From the NCBI RefSeq assembly GCF_000027125.1, contig NC_017626.1: a DNA stretch of 64,000 nt. One strand, written 5' to 3'. Shown here one piece after another: positions 1,659 through 53,940 of the stretch (the stretch's first letter is position 1; the number at the start of each line of letters is the position of its first letter). A program made the translations under genes and the position numbers. The DNA comes from Escherichia coli 042. Its GTDB lineage: Bacteria; Pseudomonadota; Gammaproteobacteria; Enterobacterales; Enterobacteriaceae. The notes beneath the pieces are model-generated. The model had not been told where the DNA came from. It searched no databases and worked only from the letters and a program-made list of their open reading frames with translations.

Positions 1659-3131
1659 TTAGAATATGGACTGGAATTTAGCCATCTCAACCTGGATGGA
1701 CTTCACCTGGGTGTAACTCTGGAGCGTCATCACGCCGTTCTCGCGACCAATGCCGGAGTGTTTGTAGCCGCCAACGGGCATCTCAGCAGGGGATTCGCCC
1801 CAGGTGTTGATCCAGCAAATACCCGCTTCCAGCTGATGAATGACGCGATGCGCGCGGTTCAGGTCCGCCGTCACGATGCCCGCCGCCAGGCCGTAGTCGG
1901 TATCATTGGCGCGGCGAATCACTTCGTCCTCAGATTCATAAGTGAGAAGCGACATCACCGGACCGAAGATCTCTTCGCGCACGATAGTCATTTCGTCGCG
2001 GCAATCGGTGAACACGGTCGGTGCAACCCATGCGCCGTTATCGAAGCCATCGCCTTTCAGTACATCGCCGCCGCACAGTACGCGCGCGCCTTCCTCTTTG
2101 CCTTTGGCGATATAGCGCAGCACGTTATCGCGATGCGGGAAGCTGACCAGCGGGCCGAAGTTAGTTTGCGGATCGAAAACGTCGCCCGCGCGAATGCGCT
2201 CAACGCGCGCCAGAATCTTTTGTTCAAATGTGGCTTTGCATTTCGCCGGAACGAAGACGCGGGTGCCATTGGTACACACCTGACCGGAGCTGAAGAAGTT
2301 CGCCATCATGGCGATATCAGCGGCGAGATCGAGATCTGCATCGTCGAAAACGATCAGCGGTGATTTACCGCCCAGCTCCATGGTCACTTCTTTCAGGGAG
2401 GAAGCCGCCGAATTAGCCATCACTTTTTTGCCGCTGGCGACACCGCCGGTAAATGACACTTTGGCAATGCCCGGATGCTCGGTCAGATACTGCCCGGTTT
2501 CCGCACCTACGCCCGGCAGCACGTTAAATACGCCGTCCGGCAGGCCCGCTTCGCTGTAAATTTCGGCCAGCTTTAACGCGGTAAGCGGGGTGACTTCGCT
2601 CGGTTTGAAAATCATCGCGTTGCCTGCCGCCAGCGCCGGTGCGGATTTCCACAAGGCAATCTGGATCGGGTAGTTCCATGCGCCAATCCCTGCCACTACG
2701 CCCAGCGGTTCGCGGCGAGTATAAACAAATGACGTCTCACGCAATGGGATCTGGCTGCCTTCCAGCGACGGGATCAGCCCGGCGTAGTACTCGAGCACGT
2801 CCGCGCCGGTAACGATATCGACGGTTGAGGTTTCCGAATACGCTTTTCCGGTGTCGAGGGTTTCCAGTTTTGCGAGTTCGTCATTGCGTTCACGCAGAAT
2901 ATCAACGGCCCGACGCAGAATACGCGAGCGTTCCATAGCGGTCATCGCTGCCCAGATTTTTTGCCCCTGTTGGGCACTCTTCACGGCGCGATCGACATCC
3001 TCACGCCCGGCGGCCTGCACGGTCGCCAGCACGTTACCGTTGGCCGGGTTAATGGTCTCGAAGGTGCGACCGCTGGTGGCGGAGGTATAACCACCATGTA
3101 TATAAAGCTGCTGTTCTGCCATTCGGGACAT
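1659..3131 (-). CDS. betB: betaine aldehyde dehydrogenase
   Basis: 491-aa ORF in track; aldehyde dehydrogenase family sequence; start set at the second codon ([17 protein letters not shown]) rather than the upstream GTG. Confidence 0.93.
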
Positions 3132-3144
3132 CACGTCTCCTCGG

Positions 3145-3732
3145 TTAATCGGTGGGTAAATGCTGAGAAATAAAGTGACGGGTCAGCGAGTGTGCGAGAG
3201 GTTTATCCAGCGGTTTGCCGCTCAGTGCCGCGCGCAGCCATAATCCGTCAATCAGCGCGGCAAGTCCGTAGCCCGCTTCCTGCGCCTGTTGGCGCGGTAA
3301 CTCGCGGCGAAATTCGCTCACCAGATTCGACAATAAGCGGCGGCTGCTCACCTGCTGCAAACGGTAAAGCATCGGCTGATGCATACTGCTGGCCCAGAAC
3401 GCCAGCCAGGCTTTCATCGCAGCATTACTGACCTGAGTCTCATCGAAATTCCCGTCAACAATCGCCTGTAATCGCTGCTCTGCACTGCCCTGCGGAAGTG
3501 CATGTAATCGATTCAAAACCGCGTCACGCAGCTGAGTGGTGATATCGCGCATGGTTGCTTCCAGCAGACCATTTTTGTCCCTGAAATAGTGGCTGATGAT
3601 CCCCGTAGAAACGCCTGCACGGCGGGCGATCTGCGCGATCGTTGCATCGTGCATGCCCACTTCATTTATTGCTTCCAGCGTGGCGTCGATCAGTTGTCTG
3701 CGCCGGATCGACTGCATCCCCAATTTGGGCAT
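3145..3732 (-). CDS. betI: TetR-family repressor of the bet regulon
   Basis: ORF 3145..3750; conserved N-terminus [22 protein letters not shown] places the start at 3732; TetR-type HTH. Confidence 0.9.
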
Positions 3733-3860
3733 TTTCGCCACTCCATTCATCAGCGTTGTTTATCTATTAAAGCGGTTATTGATTGGACGTTCAATATAAA
3801 ATGTGTCTTAATTGTTACGAATTTGATTTTAAATGGTAACAATAACAGTGGGGATACTGG
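3733..3860. promoter_or_regulatory. divergent betI / betT control region
   Basis: 128-bp AT-rich spacer between divergently oriented betI and betT; individual operator sites not resolved by eye. Confidence 0.5.
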
Positions 3861-5894
3861 ATGACAGACCTTTCACACAGCAGGGAAAAGGACAAAATCA
3901 ATCCGGTGGTGTTTTACACTTCCGCCGGACTGATTTTGTTGTTTTCCCTGACAACGATCCTGTTTCGCGACTTCTCGGCCCTGTGGATTGGCCGCACGCT
4001 GGACTGGGTTTCTAAAACCTTCGGTTGGTACTATCTGCTGGCGGCAACGCTCTATATTGTCTTTGTGGTCTGCATCGCTTGTTCGCGTTTTGGTTCGGTG
4101 AAGCTCGGGCCTGAACAATCCAAACCGGAATTTAGCCTGCTGAGCTGGGCGGCGATGCTGTTTGCTGCCGGGATCGGTATCGACCTGATGTTCTTCTCCG
4201 TAGCCGAACCGGTAACGCAGTATATGCAGCCGCCGGAAGGCGCGGGTCAGACGATTGAGGCCGCGCGTCAGGCGATGGTCTGGACGCTGTTTCACTACGG
4301 CTTAACCGGCTGGTCGATGTATGCGCTGATGGGCATGGCGCTCGGATACTTTAGCTATCGTTATAATTTGCCGCTCACCATCCGCTCAGCGTTGTACCCG
4401 ATCTTCGGTAAACGGATTAATGGGCCGATTGGTCATTCAGTGGATATTGCAGCGGTGATCGGCACCATCTTCGGTATTGCCACTACGCTCGGTATCGGTG
4501 TGGTGCAGCTTAACTATGGCTTGAGCGTACTGTTTGATATTCCTGATTCAATGGCGGCGAAAGCGGCACTGATCGCCTTGTCGGTGATCATCGCAACGAT
4601 CTCTGTCACCTCCGGTGTCGATAAGGGCATTCGCGTGTTATCGGAACTCAACGTTGCGCTGGCGCTGGGGTTGATCCTGTTCGTGCTGTTTATGGGCGAC
4701 ACCTCGTTCCTGCTTAATGCGCTGGTGCTGAACGTTGGCGACTATGTGAATCGCTTTATGGGAATGACGCTCAACAGTTTTGCCTTCGACCGTCCGGTTG
4801 AGTGGATGAATAACTGGACGCTCTTCTTCTGGGCATGGTGGGTGGCATGGTCGCCGTTTGTCGGCCTGTTTCTGGCGCGTATCTCGCGCGGGCGCACCAT
4901 TCGCCAGTTCGTGCTGGGCACGTTGATTATTCCGTTTACCTTCACGCTGTTATGGCTCTCGGTATTCGGCAATAGCGCGCTGTATGAAATCATCCACGGC
5001 GGCGCGGCATTTGCCGAGGAAGCGATGGTCCATCCGGAGCGCGGCTTCTACAGCCTGCTGGCGCAGTATCCGGCGTTTACCTTTAGCGCCTCCGTCGCCA
5101 CCATTACTGGCCTGCTGTTTTATGTGACCTCGGCGGACTCCGGTGCGCTGGTGCTGGGGAATTTCACCTCGCAGCTTAAAGATATCAACAGCGACGCCCC
5201 CGGCTGGCTGCGCGTCTTCTGGTCGGTGGCGATTGGCCTGCTGACGCTTGGCATGCTGATGACCAACGGGATATCCGCGCTGCAAAACACCACGGTGATT
5301 ATGGGGCTGCCGTTCAGCTTTGTGATCTTCTTCGTGATGGCGGGGTTGTATAAATCTCTGAAGGTAGAAGATTACCGCCGTGAAAGTGCCAACCGCGATA
5401 CCGCACCGCGACCGCTGGGGCTTCAGGATCGCCTGAGCTGGAAAAAACGTCTCTCGCGCCTGATGAATTATCCGGGCACGCGTTACACTAAACAGATGAT
5501 GGAGACGGTCTGTTACCCGGCAATGGAAGAAGTGGCGCAGGAGCTGCGGTTGCGCGGCGCGTACGTGGAGCTAAAAAGCCTGCCGCCGGAAGAGGGACAA
5601 CAGTTGGGGCATCTGGATTTGTTGGTGCATATGGGCGAAGAGCAAAACTTTGTCTATCAGATTTGGCCGCAGCAATATTCGGTGCCGGGCTTTACCTACC
5701 GCGCACGTAGCGGTAAATCGACCTACTACCGGCTGGAAACCTTCCTGTTAGAAGGCAGCCAGGGCAACGACCTGATGGACTACAGCAAAGAGCAGGTGAT
5801 CACCGATATTCTCGACCAGTACGAGCGGCACCTTAACTTTATCCATCTCCATCGTGAAGCGCCGGGCCATAGCGTGATGTTCCCGGACGCGTGA
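3861..5894 (+). CDS. betT: choline transporter (BCCT family)
   Basis: 677-aa ORF starting MTDLSHSREKDKINPVVFYTSAGLILLF, polytopic membrane protein. Confidence 0.93.
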   Translation: MTDLSHSREKDKINPVVFYTSAGLILLFSLTTILFRDFSALWIGRTLDWVSKTFGWYYLLAATLYIVFVVCIACSRFGSVKLGPEQSKPEFSLLSWAAMLFAAGIGIDLMFFSVAEPVTQYMQPPEGAGQTIEAARQAMVWTLFHYGLTGWSMYALMGMALGYFSYRYNLPLTIRSALYPIFGKRINGPIGHSVDIAAVIGTIFGIATTLGIGVVQLNYGLSVLFDIPDSMAAKAALIALSVIIATISVTSGVDKGIRVLSELNVALALGLILFVLFMGDTSFLLNALVLNVGDYVNRFMGMTLNSFAFDRPVEWMNNWTLFFWAWWVAWSPFVGLFLARISRGRTIRQFVLGTLIIPFTFTLLWLSVFGNSALYEIIHGGAAFAEEAMVHPERGFYSLLAQYPAFTFSASVATITGLLFYVTSADSGALVLGNFTSQLKDINSDAPGWLRVFWSVAIGLLTLGMLMTNGISALQNTTVIMGLPFSFVIFFVMAGLYKSLKVEDYRRESANRDTAPRPLGLQDRLSWKKRLSRLMNYPGTRYTKQMMETVCYPAMEEVAQELRLRGAYVELKSLPPEEGQQLGHLDLLVHMGEEQNFVYQIWPQQYSVPGFTYRARSGKSTYYRLETFLLEGSQGNDLMDYSKEQVITDILDQYERHLNFIHLHREAPGHSVMFPDA

Positions 5895-5910: not shown

Positions 5911-5936
5911 CCGCGCCATGTCTGCATATGGCGCGG
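5911..5936 (+). terminator. candidate betT terminator hairpin
   Basis: ccgcgccat / atggcgcgg inverted repeat directly after the betT stop; weak U-tract. Confidence 0.35.
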
Positions 5937-6467
5937 GAATCATTGACTCGCTGTAAAAAATTATGCATATATTATATATGATTGTCATGTCATATCCTGC
6001 AATTCCTCTTGTATCACTTCATGATTTTATATTTTATTAATTAACGATTTTATTTTGTATTAGCTGAATGGATTCAGTCCTATAGAGTTATATATTTATT
6101 AATAAGACGATTCTTATATTTTGATACCTAATAAGAGTTACCACTTTTACCGGCTGTATATTAAATGTATTTCTCTTGCTTTTGTTTATATTTTGAGTTG
6201 ATTTGAGTTCCTGGATACATATAATGCGCAGGTATTAGAGACTGGGGGGGAATGTAATGATAAAGTTAAGAGTGTTAACTTAAAATAAGTTTTCAGTAGT
6301 AACTTGCTATTTTATTACCCTCTGAACTACATACTCAGATATGTGGTTGCCAATGCTATGCAAAATTTTTGAATTTTTATATGCGATGAACAGTAACCGG
6401 AATGGCATTTAATGCGTTGCTGTTTATGCAATCTTGGTTTTATTTGGATGTATTGCTGGAGATTGTG

Positions 6468-17988: not shown

Positions 17989-18161
17989 GCCGGATGCGGC
18001 GTGAACGCCTTATCCGGCCTACGAGTGGCGCGAGAATCTGTAGGCCTGATAAGCGTAGCGCATCAGGCATTTGTCACCATTGCCGGATGCGGCGTGAACG
18101 CCTTATCCGGCCTACGAATGGCACGAGAATTCTAGGCCTGATAAGCGTAGCGCATCAGGCA
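17989..18161. repeat. BIME: four alternating REP palindromes
   Basis: gccggatgcggcgtgaacgccttatccggcctacg and gtaggcctgataagcgtagcgcatcaggca units, each present twice. Confidence 0.9.
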
Positions 18162-27386: not shown

Positions 27387-28277
27387 ATGTCTCTACACTC
27401 TCCAGGTAAAGCGTTTCGCGCTGCACTGACTAAAGAAAATCCATTGCAGATTGTTGGCACCATCAACGCTAACCATGCGCTGTTGGCGCAGCGTGCCGGA
27501 TATCAGGCGATTTATCTTTCCGGCGGTGGCGTGGCGGCAGGTTCGCTGGGGCTGCCCGATCTCGGTATTTCTACCCTTGATGACGTGCTGACCGACATTC
27601 GCCGTATCACCGACGTCTGCTCGCTGCCGCTGCTGGTAGATGCGGATATCGGTTTTGGTTCTTCTGCTTTTAACGTTGCGCGCACCGTGAAATCGATGAT
27701 TAAAGCCGGTGCGGCGGGATTGCATATTGAAGATCAGGTTGGTGCGAAACGCTGCGGCCATCGCCCGAATAAAGCGATCGTCTCGAAAGAGGAGATGGTG
27801 GATCGGATCCGCGCGGCGGTGGATGCGAAAACCGATCCTGATTTTGTGATCATGGCGCGCACCGATGCGCTGGCGGTTGAAGGGCTGGATGCGGCGATCG
27901 AGCGTGCGCGGGCCTATGTTGAAGCGGGTGCCGAGATGTTGTTCCCGGAGGCGATTACCGAACTCGCTATGTACCGCCAGTTTGCCGATGCGGTGCAGGT
28001 GCCAATCCTCGCCAACATTACCGAATTTGGCGCAACACCGCTGTTTACTACCGATGAATTACGCAGTGCCCATGTTGCAATGGCGCTGTACCCGCTTTCA
28101 GCGTTTCGCGCCATGAACCGCGCCGCCGAACATGTCTACAACGTCCTGCGTCAGGAAGGCACGCAGAAAAGCGTCATCGACACCATGCAGACCCGCAACG
28201 AACTGTACGAAAGCATCAACTATTACCAGTACGAAGAGAAGCTCGACGACCTGTTTGCCCGTAGCCAGGCGAAATAA
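27387..28277 (+). CDS. prpB: 2-methylisocitrate lyase
   Basis: 296-aa ORF, isocitrate-lyase/PEP-mutase superfamily. Confidence 0.92.
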
Positions 28278-28298
28278 AAAACGCCCGTTGGTTGTATT

Positions 28299-28770
28299 CG
28301 ACAACCGATGCCTGATGCGCCGCTGACGCGGCTTATCAGGCCTACGGGATGAACTGAACTGTAGGTCGGATAAGACGCATAGCGTCGCATCCGACAACCG
28401 ATGCCTGATGCGCCGCTGACGCGGCTTATCAGGCCTACGGGGTGAACTGAACTGTAGGTCGGATAAGACGCATAGCGTCGCATCCGACAACCGATGCCTG
28501 ATGCGCCGCTGACGCGGCTTATCAGGCCTACGGGGCGTGCTGAACTGTAGGTCGGATAAGACGTATGGCGTCGCATCCGACAACCGATGCCTGATGCGCC
28601 GCTGACGCGACTTATCAGGCCTACGGGGTGAACTGAACTGTAGGTCGGATAAGACGCATGGCGTCGCATCCGACAACCGATGCCTGATGCGACGCTGACG
28701 CGGCTTATCAGGCCTGCGGGGTGAACTGAACTGTAGGTCGGATAAGACGCATAGCGTCGCATCCGACAAC
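28299..28770. repeat. tandem REP/BIME array, about five copies of a 93-bp unit
   Basis: cgacaaccgatgcctgatgcgccgctgacgcggcttatcaggcctacgg...gtaggtcggataagacgcatagcgtcgcatc recurs at 28299, 28392, 28485, 28578 and 28671. Confidence 0.9.
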
Positions 28771-28809
28771 AATCTCGACCCTACAAATGATAACAATGAC
28801 GAGGACAAT

Positions 28810-29979
28810 ATGAGCGACACAACGATCCTGCAAAACAGTACCCATGTCATTAAACCGAAAAAATCTGTGGCACTTTCTGGCGTTCCGGCGGGCAATACGG
28901 CGCTCTGCACCGTGGGTAAAAGTGGCAATGACTTGCATTACCGTGGTTACGATATTATTGATCTGGCGGAACATTGCGAATTTGAAGAAGTGGCGCATCT
29001 GCTGATCCACGGCAAACTGCCGACCCGTGACGAACTCGCCGCTTACAAAACAAAACTGAAAGCCCTGCGCGGTTTACCGGCTAACGTGCGTACCGTGCTG
29101 GAAGCCTTACCGGCGGCGTCGCACCCGATGGATGTCATGCGCACAGGCGTTTCCGCACTCGGTTGCACGCTGCCAGAAAAAGAAGGGCACACTGTCTCTG
29201 GCGCGCGGGATATTGCCGACAAACTGTTGGCGTCGCTTAGCTCGATTCTTCTCTACTGGTATCACTACAGCCACAACGGCGAACGCATCCAGCCAGAAAC
29301 CGATGACGACTCCATCGGCGGTCACTTCCTGCATCTGCTGCATGGCGAAAAGCCGTCGCAAAGCTGGGAAAAGGCGATGCATATTTCGCTGGTGCTGTAC
29401 GCCGAACACGAGTTTAACGCCTCCACCTTTACCAGCCGGGTGATTGCGGGCACCGGCTCTGATATGTATTCCGCGATTATTGGCGCGATTGGCGCACTGC
29501 GCGGGCCGAAACACGGCGGGGCGAATGAAGTGTCGCTGGAGATCCAACAACGCTACGAAACGCCGGACGAAGCCGAAGCCGATATCCGCAAGCGCGTGGA
29601 AAACAGAGAAGTGGTCATTGGTTTTGGTCATCCGGTTTACACCATCGCCGACCCGCGTCATCAGGTGATCAAACGCGTGGCGAAGCAGCTCTCGCAGGAA
29701 GGCGGTTCGCTGAAGATGTACAACATCGCCGATCGCCTGGAAACGGTGATGTGGGAGAGCAAAAAGATGTTCCCCAATCTCGACTGGTTCTCCGCTGTTT
29801 CCTACAACATGATGGGCGTTCCCACCGAGATGTTCACCCCACTGTTTGTTATCGCCCGCGTCACCGGCTGGGCGGCGCACATTATCGAACAACGTCAGGA
29901 CAACAAAATTATCCGTCCTTCCGCCAATTATGTTGGACCGGAAGACCGCCAGTTTGTCGCGCTGGATAAGCGCCAGTAA
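28810..29979 (+). CDS. prpC: 2-methylcitrate synthase
   Basis: 389-aa ORF of the citrate synthase family. Confidence 0.92.
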
Positions 29980-31503: not shown

Positions 31504-33390
31504 ATGTCTTTTAGCGAATTTTATCAGCGTTCGATTAACGAACCGGAGAAGTTCTGGGCCGAGCAGGCCCGGCGTATTGACTGGCAGACGCCCTTTACGC
31601 AAACGCTCGATCACAGCAATCCGCCGTTTGCCCGTTGGTTTTGTGAAGGCCGAACCAACTTGTGTCACAACGCTATCGACCGCTGGCTGGAGAAACAGCC
31701 AGAGGCGCTGGCGCTGATTGCCGTCTCTTCGGAAACAGAAGAAGAGCGCACCTTTACCTTCCGCCAGTTACATGACGAAGTGAATGCGGTGGCCTCAATG
31801 CTGCGCTCGCTGGGTGTGCAGCGCGGCGATCGGGTGCTGGTGTATATGCCGATGATTGCCGAAGCACATATTACTCTGCTGGCTTGCGCGCGCATTGGCG
31901 CTATTCACTCGGTGGTGTTTGGGGGATTTGCCTCGCACAGCGTGGCGGCGCGAATTGATGATGCTAAACCGGTGCTGATTGTCTCGGCTGATGCCGGAGC
32001 GCGCGGTGGCAAAATCATTCCCTATAAAAAATTGCTCGACGATGCGATAAGTCAGGCGCAGCACCAGCCACGCCATGTTTTGCTGGTGGATCGCGGGCTG
32101 GCGAAAATGGCACGCGTCAGCGGGCGGGATGTCGATTTCGCGTCGTTGCGCCATCAACACATCGGCGCGCGGGTACCGGTGGCGTGGCTGGAATCCAACG
32201 AAACCTCCTGCATTCTCTACACCTCCGGCACGACCGGCAAACCTAAAGGCGTGCAGCGTGACGTTGGCGGATATGCGGTGGCGCTGGCGACCTCGATGGA
32301 CACCATTTTTGGCGGCAAAGCGGGCGGTGTGTTCTTTTGTGCTTCGGATATCGGCTGGGTGGTGGGGCATTCGTATATCGTCTACGCGCCGCTGCTGGCG
32401 GGGATGGCGACTATCGTTTACGAAGGATTACCGACCTGGCCGGACTGCGGCGTGTGGTGGAAAATCGTCGAGAAATATCAGGTTAGCCGGATGTTCTCAG
32501 CGCCGACCGCCATTCGCGTGCTGAAAAAATTCCCTACCGCTGAAATTCGCAAACACGATCTCTCGTCGCTGGAAGTGCTCTATCTGGCTGGAGAACCGCT
32601 GGACGAGCCGACCGCCAGTTGGGTGAGCAATACGCTGGATGTGCCAGTGATCGACAATTACTGGCAGACCGAATCCGGCTGGCCGATTATGGCGATTGCT
32701 CGCGGTCTGGACGACAGGCCGACGCGTCTGGGTAGCCCCGGCGTGCCGATGTATGGCTATAACGTGCAGTTGCTTAATGAAGTCACCGGCGAACCGTGTG
32801 GCGTCAACGAGAAAGGGATGCTGGTGGTGGAAGGGCCATTGCCGCCGGGGTGTATTCAGACCATTTGGGGCGACGACGACCGCTTTGTGAAGACGTACTG
32901 GTCGCTGTTTTCCCGTCCGGTGTACGCCACTTTTGACTGGGGTATCCGCGATGCTGACGGTTATCACTTTATTCTCGGGCGCACTGACGATGTGATTAAC
33001 GTTGCCGGGCATCGGCTGGGGACGCGCGAGATTGAAGAGAGTATCTCCAGTCATCCGGGCGTTGCCGAAGTGGCGGTGGTTGGGGTGAAAGATGCGCTGA
33101 AAGGGCAGGTGGCGGTGGCGTTTGTCATTCCGAAAGAGAGCGACAGTCTGGAAGACCGTGAGGTGGCGCACTCGCAAGAGAAGGCGATTATGGCGCTGGT
33201 GGACAGCCAGATTGGCAACTTTGGCCGCCCGGCGCACGTCTGGTTTGTCTCGCAATTGCCGAAAACGCGATCCGGAAAAATGCTGCGCCGCACGATCCAG
33301 GCGATTTGCGAAGGACGCGATCCTGGGGATCTGACGACCATTGATGATCCTGCGTCGTTGGATCAGATCCGCCAGGCGATGGAAGAGTAA
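31504..33390 (+). CDS. prpE: propionyl-CoA synthetase
   Basis: 628-aa ORF with AMP-binding motif YTSGTTGKPKG. Confidence 0.92.
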   Translation: MSFSEFYQRSINEPEKFWAEQARRIDWQTPFTQTLDHSNPPFARWFCEGRTNLCHNAIDRWLEKQPEALALIAVSSETEEERTFTFRQLHDEVNAVASMLRSLGVQRGDRVLVYMPMIAEAHITLLACARIGAIHSVVFGGFASHSVAARIDDAKPVLIVSADAGARGGKIIPYKKLLDDAISQAQHQPRHVLLVDRGLAKMARVSGRDVDFASLRHQHIGARVPVAWLESNETSCILYTSGTTGKPKGVQRDVGGYAVALATSMDTIFGGKAGGVFFCASDIGWVVGHSYIVYAPLLAGMATIVYEGLPTWPDCGVWWKIVEKYQVSRMFSAPTAIRVLKKFPTAEIRKHDLSSLEVLYLAGEPLDEPTASWVSNTLDVPVIDNYWQTESGWPIMAIARGLDDRPTRLGSPGVPMYGYNVQLLNEVTGEPCGVNEKGMLVVEGPLPPGCIQTIWGDDDRFVKTYWSLFSRPVYATFDWGIRDADGYHFILGRTDDVINVAGHRLGTREIEESISSHPGVAEVAVVGVKDALKGQVAVAFVIPKESDSLEDREVAHSQEKAIMALVDSQIGNFGRPAHVWFVSQLPKTRSGKMLRRTIQAICEGRDPGDLTTIDDPASLDQIRQAMEE

Positions 33391-33396
33391 GGTATT

Positions 33397-33863
33397 GTCG
33401 GATGCGTCGTGTGGCGCATCCGACACCGTGCGCCGATGCCTGATGCGACGCTGACGCGTCTTATCATGCCTACAGGCCTGAACCGTAGGTCGGATAAGGC
33501 GCTCGCGCCGCATCCGACACCGTGCGCCGATGCCTGATGCGACGCTGACGCGTCTTATCATGCCTACAGGCCTGAACCGTAGGTCGGATAAGGCGCTCGC
33601 GCCGCATCCGACACCGTGCGCCGATGCCTGATGCGACGCTGGCGCGTCTTATCATGCCTACAGGTCTGAACCGTAGGTCGGATAAGGCGCTCGCGCCGCA
33701 TCCGACACCGTGCGCAGATGCCTGATACGACGCTGGCGCGTCTTATCATGCCTACAGGCCTGAACCGTAGGTCGGATAAGGCGCTCGCGCCGCATCCGAC
33801 ACCGTGCGCAGATGCCTGATGCGACGCTGACGCGTCTTATCATGCCCACAGGCCTGAACCGTG
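33397..33863. repeat. tandem REP/BIME array, about five copies of a 94-bp unit
   Basis: unit cgacaccgtgcgccgatgcctgatgcgacgctgacgcgtcttatcatgcctacaggcctgaaccgtaggtcggataaggcgctcgcgccgcatc recurs at 33421, 33515, 33609, 33703 and 33797. Confidence 0.9.
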
Positions 33864-33999
33864 GATAATTTTTCCCCCACCTTTTTGCACTCATTCATAT
33901 AAAAAATATATTTCCCCACGAAAACGATTGCTTTTTATCTTCAGATGAATAGAATGCGGCGGATTTTTTGGGTTTCAAACAGCAAAAAGGGGGAATTTC

Positions 34000-35259
34000 G
34001 TGTCGCAAGATAACAACTTTAGCCAGGGGCCAGTCCCGCAGTCGGCGCGGAAAGGGGTATTGGCATTGACGTTCGTCATGCTGGGATTAACCTTCTTTTC
34101 CGCCAGTATGTGGACCGGCGGCACTCTCGGAACCGGTCTTAGCTATCATGATTTCTTCCTCGCAGTCCTCATCGGTAATCTTCTCCTCGGTATTTACACT
34201 TCATTTCTTGGTTACATTGGCGCAAAAACCGGCCTGACCACCCATCTTCTTGCTCGCTTCTCGTTTGGTGTTAAAGGCTCATGGCTGCCTTCACTGCTGC
34301 TGGGGGGTACCCAGGTTGGCTGGTTTGGCGTTGGCGTGGCGATGTTTGCCATTCCGGTGGGTAAGGCAACCGGGCTGGATATTAATTTGCTGATTGCCGT
34401 TTCCGGTTTACTGATGACCGTCACCGTCTTCTTTGGCATTTCGGCGCTGACGGTTCTTTCGGTGATTGCGGTTCCGGCTATCGCCTGTCTTGGCGGTTAT
34501 TCCGTGTGGCTGGCCGTTAACGGCATGGGCGGCCTGGACGCATTAAAAGCGGTCGTTCCTGCACAACCGCTAGATTTCAATGTCGCGCTGGCGCTGGTTG
34601 TGGGGTCATTTATCAGCGCGGGTACGCTCACCGCTGACTTTGTCCGGTTTGGTCGCAATGCCAAACTGGCGGTGCTGGTGGCGATGGTGGCCTTTTTCCT
34701 TGGCAACTCGTTGATGTTTATTTTCGGTGCAGCGGGAGCGGCGGCACTGGGCATGGCAGATATCTCTGATGTGATGATTGCTCAGGGCCTGCTGCTACCC
34801 GCGATTGTGGTGCTGGGGCTGAATATCTGGACCACCAACGATAACGCGCTCTATGCGTCGGGCTTAGGTTTCGCCAACATTACCGGTATGTCGAGCAAAA
34901 CCCTTTCGGTGATTAACGGTATTATCGGTACGGTCTGCGCACTATGGCTGTATAACAATTTTGTCGGCTGGCTGACCTTCCTTTCGGCAGCTATTCCTCC
35001 GGTAGGGGGCGTGATCATCGCCGACTATCTGATGAACCGTCGCCGCTATGAGCACTTTGCGACCACGCGTATGATGAGTGTCAATTGGGTGGCGATTCTG
35101 GCGGTCGCCTTGGGGATTGCCGCAGGCCACTGGTTACCGGGAATTGTTCCGGTCAACGCGGTATTAGGTGGCGCGCTGAGCTATCTGATCCTTAACCCGA
35201 TTTTGAATCGTAAAACGACAGCAGCAATGACGCATGTGGAGGCTAACAGTGTCGAATAA
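34000..35259 (+). CDS. codB: cytosine permease
   Basis: 419-aa ORF with GTG start ([14 protein letters not shown]...), NCS1-family membrane protein. Confidence 0.92.
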
Positions 35260-36570: not shown

Positions 36571-36651
36571 TGCCGGATGCGGCGTGAACGCCTTATCCGG
36601 CCTACGTAGAGCACTGAACTCGTAGGCCTGATAAGCGTAGCGCATCAGGCA
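36571..36651. repeat. BIME: two REP palindromes
   Basis: tgccggatgcggcgtgaacgccttatccggcctacg and gtaggcctgataagcgtagcgcatcaggca. Confidence 0.9.
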
Positions 36652-40720: not shown

Positions 40721-40746
40721 TGCGATCATTCCGTTATGATATGTTG

Positions 40747-40776
40747 GTCGGATAAGGCGCTCGCGCCGCATCCGAC
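40747..40776. repeat. REP palindrome between lacY and lacA
   Basis: gtcggataaggcgctcgcgccgcatccgac. Confidence 0.8.
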
Positions 40777-53788: not shown

Positions 53789-53940
53789 TGCCGGATGCGG
53801 CGTGAACGCCTTATCCGGCCTACGGATGGCGCGAGAATTTGTAGGCCAGATAAGACGCGTTAGCGTCGCATCAGGCATCTGAGCACGACTGCCGGATGCG
53901 GCGTAAACGTCTTGTTCGGCCTACATTTCGCCTGTAGGCA
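53789..53940. repeat. BIME: three to four REP palindromes
   Basis: tgccggatgcggcgtgaacgccttatccggcctacg, gtaggccagataagacgcgttagcgtcgcatcaggca and a degenerate third copy. Confidence 0.88.

Follow-up and report, generated by a model that had tools for sequence, protein, structure and literature searches.

The intergenic region between prpE and codB of Escherichia coli 042 contains a tandem REP array with a period of 94 bp, which on its sequence is almost certainly of the BIME-2 type. This kind of element is already known, and the array is an ordinary E. coli intergenic palindrome cluster. The explanation that best accounts for the locus as a whole, and one held here with high confidence, is a BIME-2 REP cluster in the prp 3′UTR, upstream of the codBA promoter region. 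The term window refers to the full 64-kb stretch of E. coli 042 DNA that was analysed.

Tandem Repeats Finder (TRF) places the prpE-codB array at positions 33415–33862, with a period of 94, 4.8 copies, 97% matches, 0% indels and a score of 847. A repeat search finds four 188-nt copies spaced 94/94/94 nt with 89–100% identity. In an alignment of the units, units 1 and 2 are identical and units 3–5 are 1–4 substitutions apart; exact matches between adjacent 94-bp units extend up to 133 nt. The array has a G+C content of 63% vs 52.5% for the window. Only one other tandem array in the 64-kb window reaches a TRF score of 80 or better; it is termed the sister array here. The initial annotation had described about five copies of a 94-bp unit at 33397–33863, and both the period and the copy number are borne out by TRF. 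The copies lie exactly 94 nt apart on self-alignment, and the limits found here, 33396–33862, agree with the earlier ones to within 1–2 nt. The array and its surroundings are as follows.

33396–33862, not assigned to a strand: whole tandem REP array, very probably BIME-2 type, prpE-codB intergenic region (TRF, repeat search, unit alignment, REP parsing)
31504–33390, + strand: prpE, propionate–CoA ligase, whose 3′UTR holds the array (Pfam ACAS_N/AMP-binding/AMP-binding_C; RefSeq annotation of near-identical records)
34000–35259, + strand: codB, cytosine permease, the downstream same-strand gene (Pfam Transp_cyt_pur; RefSeq annotation of near-identical records)
33884–33912, + strand: sigma-70-like promoter match TTTGCA-17-TATATT, between the array and codB (consensus match only)
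28299–28770, not assigned to a strand: sister array, prpB-prpC, Z2(+)/Y(−), period 93, 5.1 copies (TRF, REP parsing)

In near-identical E. coli RefSeq records the gene order is prpR, prpB, prpC, prpD, prpE, codB, codA, cynR, cynTSX, lacA, and this order places the array in the prpBCDE 3′UTR. It is extragenic, as prpE ends at 33390, ahead of it, and codB begins at 34000, beyond it, and Pfam and RefSeq annotation agree with the flanking genes named earlier. The promoter match at 33884–33912 is consistent with a position of the array upstream of the codBA promoter region. A terminator pattern scan showed no hairpin-plus-U-run on the + strand of 33396–33862; in the window a T5 run starts ~19 nt past the last Z2 hairpin. 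An intrinsic (Rho-independent) terminator was considered and rejected, since no hairpin in the array is directly followed by a U-run. Thus any termination would need to be factor-dependent.

REP pattern search and linker parsing give the plan of the 94-bp unit. It consists of a 36-nt Z2-type REP on the + strand (GCCTGATGCGACGCTGACGCGTCTTATCATGCCTAC), an 11-nt tail-to-tail linker (AGGCCTGAACC), a 34-nt Y-type REP on the − strand (GTCGGATGCGGCGCGAGCGCCTTATCCGACCTAC) and a 13-nt head-to-head linker (ACCGTGCGCCGAT). Positions 33396–33862 are made up of a lead hairpin, four full 94-bp units and a partial fifth. After the fifth Z REP come its linker and just the initial GT of the next Y REP; beyond this the sequence is unique. 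The palindromic elements are listed below in order.

33396–33425, + strand: lead hairpin TGTCGGATGCGTCG-TGTG-GCGCATCCGACA, a degenerate Y-like palindromic unit (inverted-repeat search, folding)
33438–33473, + strand: Z2-type REP of unit 1, 36 nt (34/36 identical to the long Z consensus, 33/36 to REP325 Z2)
33485–33518, − strand: Y-type REP of unit 1, 34 nt (30/35 identical to the Y consensus)
33532–33567, + strand: Z2-type REP of unit 2 (REP pattern search)
33579–33612, − strand: Y-type REP of unit 2 (REP pattern search)
33626–33661, + strand: Z2-type REP of unit 3, loop GCTGGCGCG (35/36 identical to the long Z consensus)
33673–33706, − strand: Y-type REP of unit 3 (REP pattern search)
33720–33755, + strand: Z2-type REP of unit 4, variant GATACG (REP pattern search)
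33767–33800, − strand: Y-type REP of unit 4 (REP pattern search)
33814–33849, + strand: Z2-type REP of unit 5, tail CCCAC instead of CCTAC (REP pattern search)

There are thus 9 canonical REPs, in the orientation series +-+-+-+-+, and the REP pairs proposed by the initial annotation are found as an alternating Z2(+)/Y(−) series. Against the long Z consensus (as given in PMC11208160) the Z copies show an identity of 34–35/36, and against the REP325 Z2 one of 33–34/36; for the Y copies the identity to the Y consensus is 30/35. CCTAC/GTAGG is present in 8/9 canonical REPs, the exception being the CCCAC of the last Z2. When folded, the canonical hairpins show internal mismatches, whereas the lead hairpin has neither a mismatch nor a GTAG. 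Both arrays carry the Y stem variant GTCGGAT...ATCCGAC in place of the consensus GCCGGAT...ATCCGGC, which is a paired change.

The lead hairpin begins 5 nt past the prpE TAA (33388–33390). It forms a perfect 13-bp stem with an RNA delta G = −23.2 kcal/mol, displays GTAT instead of GTAG, and is kept in every allele inspected, the shortest included. It is not a canonical REP, and by its position it is a putative ribosome staller. The RNA fold of positions 33380–33900 gives an MFE of −257 kcal/mol vs −200 ± 6 for shuffled sequences (z = −8.9), and single hairpins of the array show values of −14.8, −17.4 and −23.2 kcal/mol.

REP and BIME-2 arrays, their tandem structure and their copy-number variation among strains have been described (PMC3333891, PMC4550694). 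In BIME-2, z2 + y with a short S linker is repeated several times in tandem; within a locus the copies are well conserved, and strains differ in how many they have (PMC3333891). The prpE-codB array shows a Y + Z2 composition by its identities to the consensus sequences and to REP325, and its tandem copies are conserved (97% match) and variable among strains (0.8–8.8 units). It is extragenic, and its canonical REPs carry GTAG/CTAC together with stem mismatches. BIME-2 linkers differ in length and sequence (PMC3333891). Here they are 11 nt tail-to-tail and 13 nt head-to-head; 13 nt is also the length of the REP325 'l' linker, a comparison of lengths and not of motifs. With BIME-1 the array shares inverted REP pairs and an extragenic location. 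However, BIME-1 is z1 + y, in single copy, with a long linker that carries an IHF site (PMC3333891), whereas the long Z (Z2), short linkers and tandem copies are found here. A CRISPR array was also considered and rejected, as the inter-REP segments are near-identical in every unit and there are no unique spacers.

The closest comparison is with REP325, situated between yjdM and yjdN, which is the source of naRNA1-6 and the basis of RF02564. REP325 of K-12 consists of six Y-l-Z2 units (PMC4550694). Parsed from the K-12 record, it shows a 34-nt Y(−), a 13-nt linker, a 36-nt Z2(+) and a 17-nt linker, with a period of 100. Both elements have Y alternating with a 36-nt Z2 in tandem units, a 13-nt head-to-head linker and a short tail-to-tail linker. 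Both lie between same-strand genes, in the 3′UTR of the upstream gene, and in both Y is inverted and Z2 direct relative to transcription. They differ in period (94 nt here vs 100 in REP325) and in the tail-to-tail linker, which is AGGCCTGAACC (11 nt) here vs AAATTCCCGCACCCTCC (17 nt) in REP325. Unlike REP325, the prpE-codB array has the Y stem variant GTCGGAT/ATCCGAC and an extra degenerate hairpin beside the stop codon. In a literature search that covered sources other than the supplements of PMC3333891, where BIME loci are given, prpE-codB was not named as a REP or VNTR locus, and the retrieved feature tables of K-12 RefSeq records show no REP features.

The prpE-codB locus is nearly universal in 5,426 complete E. 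coli genomes. None of them has a sequence identical to that of the window, the best match being 99.2% over a 1,051-nt query. Inter-strain comparison of copy number, which the initial annotation had proposed as a check, shows that the array is polymorphic and ranges from 0.8 to 8.8 units. The prpE-codB intergenic lengths among strains are 236, 329, 424, 516, 609, 612, 893, 900 and 985 bp. Alleles of individual records are given here with the reservation that assembly errors may affect their lengths.

19KM1776: array of 99 bp, 0.8 units (lead hairpin + one Z2)
K-12: array of 192 bp, 1.8 units
O157:H7 M1300706002: array of 287 bp, 2.8 units
EC2641: intergenic region one unit shorter than in the window, 3.8 units
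Window and EcPNK004: array of 472 bp, 4.8 units
O157:H7 EC4115: array of 475 bp, 4.8 units
O157:H7 86-24: array of 756 bp, 7.8 units
2017C-4173W12: array of 763 bp, 7.8 units
THO-008: array of ~848 bp, 8.8 units (17 canonical REPs + lead hairpin)

The K-12 allele (MG1655/BW25113) is orthologous: its lead hairpin, unit structure and flanks all agree with those of the window. It has 1.8 units, 3 canonical REPs and 192 bp, vs 4.8 units, 9 REPs and 472 bp in the window. It also ends differently, with ...CCTACCCACTGTTTTTACAC in K-12 vs the tail-to-tail linker + GT in the window.

A systematic sample of 60 records, evenly spread down the ranking of all matches, was distributed as follows.

0.8 units: 15 (25%)
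1.8 units: 28 (47%)
2.8 units: 3
4.8 units: 1 (the top match)
Long arrays with the right flank unjoined: 6, of which two were inspected and have 7.8 units
Truncated like strain LH09-a (IS621 inserted): 3
Irregular: 1
No locus: 3

The five-unit allele of the window is thus intermediate in length and belongs to a minority. Within O157:H7, three genomes whose PrpE and CodB proteins are identical have 2.8, 4.8 and 7.8 units, in nested unit patterns. The unit order is A A B C T in the window and A B C D T in EcPNK004, and THO-008 has nine units; the right-end haplotype is common to all three, and the THO-008 flanks are 99.4–99.9% identical to the window. Nested alleles are the pattern to be expected if whole units are gained or lost within the array. 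Such changes may arise when 94-bp units recombine unequally or when replication slips from one to another, and activity of the REP-associated transposase (TnpAREP) is a possible further contributor.

Both arrays are also present in Escherichia whittamii at orthologous sites, with 92 bp × 2.1 and 95 bp × 2.7. Thus both predate the E. coli / E. whittamii split. E. whittamii was the only other species matched in one scan of GTDB species representatives with a unit-specific linker pattern, a pattern that 0.8-unit alleles or alleles with diverged linkers cannot match.

A role of the array as message stabiliser and attenuator at the prpE-codB locus, suggested by analogy with REP325 and the BIME-2 family, is an evenly balanced proposition. 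When the region is transcribed from the prp promoter, ~10 stable hairpins would block 3′→5′ exonucleases and in this way stabilise the upstream prp message. The hairpin stack may also attenuate transcription in part, probably in a Rho-dependent manner, and so limit readthrough into codBA. REP325, with 12 hairpins, is reported to have both roles: it is an mRNA stabiliser and a partly Rho-dependent attenuator that gives a ladder of hairpin-ended transcripts (bioRxiv 10.64898/2026.03.23.713779). REP effects are, however, context-dependent and not uniform (bioRxiv 10.64898/2026.03.23.713779). Liang et al. 2015, as summarised in PMC12306157, report that terminating ribosomes are stalled when a REP lies within 15 nt of the stop codon, and that translation of the gene upstream is lowered. 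The lead hairpin, 5 nt past the stop, falls within this distance (≤15 nt) and by that account could have such an effect on prpE. At the DNA level the array is a predicted gyrase site by its BIME-2 family, BIME-2 being bound and cleaved by DNA gyrase in vivo (Espeli & Boccard 1997, as cited in PMC3333891).

The natural copy number of 1 to 9 units speaks against a tight constraint on array length, which fits either a weak or redundant function or a largely neutral expansion. The alternative that deserves most weight is that the array is largely neutral or selfish REP/REPIN-like repeat DNA with no locus-specific host function; it is a possible reading but a somewhat doubtful one. Changes in size, by slippage, unequal crossing-over or TnpAREP, might then simply be tolerated in a non-essential intergenic region, which is a suggestion to be held just as tentatively. 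The spread from 0.8 to 8.8 units, with differences among O157:H7 isolates of identical PrpE and CodB, is in line with the neutral reading, as is the fact that short alleles are the commonest (25% with 0.8 units and 47% with 1.8 units, n = 60 records). In at least one strain IS621 is inserted into the array without obvious harm, and TnpAREP cleaves and recombines BIMEs in vitro (PMC3333891). On the other hand, the element already occupied this site before E. coli and E. whittamii diverged and has been kept there, and the lead hairpin and at least one Z2 REP are kept in every allele inspected. Stem complementarity is preserved by the paired changes in the Y stem, and REP325 measurably affects its operon (bioRxiv 10.64898/2026.03.23.713779), points that likewise count against the neutral reading.

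The stabiliser/attenuator reading has an extension, in which the number of units (1 to 9, varying even within O157:H7) would be a fast-evolving heritable 'dial'. This is unlikely. If true, the dial would set prp readthrough into codBA, the lifetime of the prp message or the amount of PrpE, and a BIME-2 VNTR would be a contingency-like regulatory locus.

Four Y-linker-Z2 pairs of the array match the Rfam model naRNA4 (RF02564), at the following positions.

33488–33564, + strand: Y-linker-Z2 pair matching naRNA4 (Rfam)
33582–33658, + strand: Y-linker-Z2 pair matching naRNA4 (Rfam)
33676–33752, + strand: Y-linker-Z2 pair matching naRNA4 (Rfam)
33770–33846, + strand: Y-linker-Z2 pair matching naRNA4 (Rfam)

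Their scores are 70.2–72.4 bits vs a gathering score of 59.5, which makes them members of the family by the Rfam threshold, and they lie on the strand transcribed from prpE. The units could accordingly be read as genes for nucleoid-associated small RNAs (naRNA-like), which together with HU would bridge REP cruciforms and condense the chromosome; naRNA4 from REP325 binds HU and condenses DNA (PMC4550694). However, the window holds 10 naRNA4 matches above threshold, including those in the sister array and in two other REP clusters. The model therefore recognises BIME-2 units generally and not a specific gene: it represents a generic Y-linker-Z2 pair, so that any BIME-2 unit matches. A 2026 preprint, whose authors overlap with those of the naRNA4 work, contradicts the part in nucleoid organisation that had been proposed for naRNA4 (PMC4550694). 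According to this preprint, deletion or overexpression of REP325 leaves nucleoid volume unchanged (bioRxiv 10.64898/2026.03.23.713779), and REP-REP contacts are not formed (10.64898/2026.03.23.713779). It is therefore quite improbable that the array consists of naRNA-like genes.

The sister array lies within the operon, between the prpB end (28277) and the prpC start (28810). It resembles the prpE-codB array in its Z2(+)/Y(−) series, its ~5 copies, its Y stem variant and its variable length among strains, but it differs in its position inside the operon and its period of 93. Its linkers are 15 and 7 nt vs 11/13 nt in the prpE-codB array, and its unit is ~80% identical to the 94-bp unit, with REP order and orientation shared. 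K-12 carries both arrays, and the prpB-prpC intergenic region is 439 bp in K-12 vs 532 bp in the window. The earlier statement that the prpCDE block is bracketed by two long arrays is correct. The description of the two as different subtypes applies to linker lengths and a few stem positions, but not to the REP classes (Z2 + Y), their order or their orientation, which are the same. The claim of an unusual density holds against the genome average, with ~20 REPs in 5.6 kb here and about 584 REPs in K-12 (PMC3333891), roughly 1 per 8 kb; however, it is a conserved and previously seen property of the locus. A 'prpB // prpC repeat' is given as an assembly contig break (PMC3045373).

Recombination between the two directly oriented arrays could delete or amplify the prpCDE block. 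The arrays have the same orientation and ~80% unit identity, and the longest exact stretch common to both is 26 nt. A length of 26 nt is about the minimum for RecA-dependent recombination. Beyond this one stretch, however, exact identity between the arrays is present only in short runs. Recombination between the arrays in population genomes, which the initial annotation had raised as a point to check, was searched for in 5,426 complete E. coli genomes with chimeric 900-nt queries, 450 nt from each side of the predicted junction. The deletion junction (prpB 3′ end + codB 5′ flank) was joined in 0/5,426 genomes, and so was the duplication junction (prpE 3′ end + prpC 5′ end) in 0/5,426, for hybrid arrays up to ~950 bp, longer ones being such as would escape these queries. 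Deletion or amplification of prpCDE through the arrays is thus highly improbable.

Several open reading frames are found on the reverse strand of the array.

32497–33561, − strand: 354-aa open reading frame that starts inside unit 2 and runs antisense through the prpE 3′ end, judged spurious (ORF list)
33470–33655, − strand: 61-aa open reading frame, in or around the array (ORF list)
33564–33749, − strand: 61-aa open reading frame, in or around the array (ORF list)
33658–33894, − strand: 78-aa open reading frame, in or around the array (ORF list)

The sister array likewise displays a repeat-encoded reverse open reading frame of 179 aa (28223–28762, − strand). Its period of 93 is a multiple of 3, which gives a long in-frame reverse reading frame. 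In EcPNK004 this frame is annotated by PGAP as 'hypothetical protein' WP_001526095.1, and a 'hypothetical protein' overlapping the prpB 3′ end is annotated in many other genomes. A similarity of the sister-array frame to TTC3_9th (21.6 bits vs a cutoff of 27) was the sole sub-threshold Pfam match and was judged to be noise. The frames of the prpE-codB array exist, as does this annotated counterpart, but the 354-aa and 78-aa sequences, the two that were scanned, give no Pfam match, and all four are absent from the annotation of the RefSeq records examined (K-12, EcPNK004). A period of 94 is not divisible by 3, so each successive unit moves the frame by one and the length of the open reading frame depends on copy number. 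REP hairpins and the prpE antisense strand account for the sequence in full, so that there is next to no chance that these frames (354 aa; 61–78 aa) encode real proteins, and the initial annotation was right to call the reverse frames overlapping the prpE 3′ end spurious.

The array has little importance beyond correct annotation. Arrays of this kind break short-read assemblies, the contig break at the sister array (PMC3045373) being an example, and they seed false open reading frame calls, as with the PGAP 179-aa 'hypothetical protein' in the sister array. They match Rfam naRNA4 and so risk being mislabelled as sRNA genes, and they offer IS621 natural landing sites. The alleles of 0.8 to 8.8 units form a convenient natural panel for asking whether the number of REPs tunes the function of a 3′UTR.

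REP sequences are also found in the window as clusters and as three single units:

17989-18115, cluster of Y, short-Z and Y REPs
36572-36605, single REP
40743-40776, single REP
53790-53924, Y-Z-Y cluster, Rfam score 65.4 bits
55894-55930, single REP

The best match in the window to naRNA4 (Rfam RF02564, built on K-12 REP325) is the Y-Z pair of the first cluster, at 18043-18112 on the minus strand (78 bits). The single unit at 40743-40776 is a Y REP, which is the same as the Y copy of the prpE-codB array apart from its tail.

The prpE-codB array, of alternating Z2 and Y REPs, and the tandem REP array between prpB and prpC share an exact match of 26 nt (28677-28702 versus 33433-33458), because the last Z2 copy of the prpB-prpC array carries GCGACGCTGACGCG, matching the prpE-codB array. 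The presence of GCGACGCTGACGCG in this copy may stem from a point mutation or be left over from gene conversion. Both arrays are found at the orthologous sites in the sister species Escherichia whittamii Sa2BVA5, where the prpB-prpC array (positions 1088-1282 of the record) has 2.1 copies with a 92 bp period and the prpE-codB array (5925-6176) has 2.7 copies with a 95 bp period. Approximately 195-202 of 5,426 complete E. coli genomes give no match to either the prpB/codB or the prpE/prpC flank queries and therefore do not have the region at all. An example is the K-12-type strain O16:H48 PG20180054, which may have had its lac region deleted in the laboratory.

The 93-bp period of the prpB-prpC array is a multiple of 3, thus an open reading frame stays in frame throughout the array. 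Two repeat-encoded open reading frames are present:

28223-28762, minus strand, 179 aa, running through the prpB-prpC array
28098-28928, minus strand, 276 aa, spanning the prpB-prpC array

The 179 aa open reading frame is labelled a hypothetical protein (WP_001526095.1) in the PGAP annotation of the near-identical E. coli record EcPNK004, and in many other genomes a hypothetical protein is annotated overlapping the 3′ end of prpB. These are probably a recurrent false gene call.

In most alleles compared, the right end of the prpE-codB array reads ...CCTAC CCACTGTTTTTACAC, followed by GATAATTTTT, and a T-run is situated 6 nt past the last Z2 hairpin. The window (33850-33862), EcPNK004 and THO-008 do not have the CCACTGTTTTTACAC segment, and their right end consists of the tail-to-tail linker and GT. 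Termination might differ between the two right-end haplotypes.

E. coli LH09-a carries a copy of IS621, an IS110-family element with a bridge-RNA recombinase, inside the prpE-codB array (about 3674-4946 of the record), with its target in the last Z2 REP. The exact insertion point, ...TTATCAGGCCT|TGTAT...ACAGTATCT|AC..., is the CT core of ATCAGGCCTAC, described as the natural target of IS621 (PMC11208160). Among the sampled records, two more (H155 and H157) show the same truncated match as LH09-a. In the window array, none of the five Z2 REPs has ATCAGGCCTAC; they read ATCATGCCTAC (33462-33473 in the first copy and the equivalent position in every other), except the last, which reads ATCATGCCCAC. 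In several other alleles ATCAGGCCTAC is kept only by the terminal Z2, the site of IS621 in LH09-a.

The longest allele seen is that of E. coli THO-008 (2951-3798 of the record), with 8 full units and a partial one between flanks 99.4-99.9% identical to those of the window. Its 18 palindromic units, including the degenerate lead hairpin after the prpE stop, exceed the 12 of REP325, itself reported to be one of the longest REP elements of K-12. Within O157:H7, strains 86-24, EC4115 and M1300706002 carry 7.8, 4.8 and 2.8 units, respectively, in nested unit patterns, and their PrpE and CodB proteins are identical. Thus, unless some of the assemblies are collapsed, the array changes fast enough to vary within one clone.
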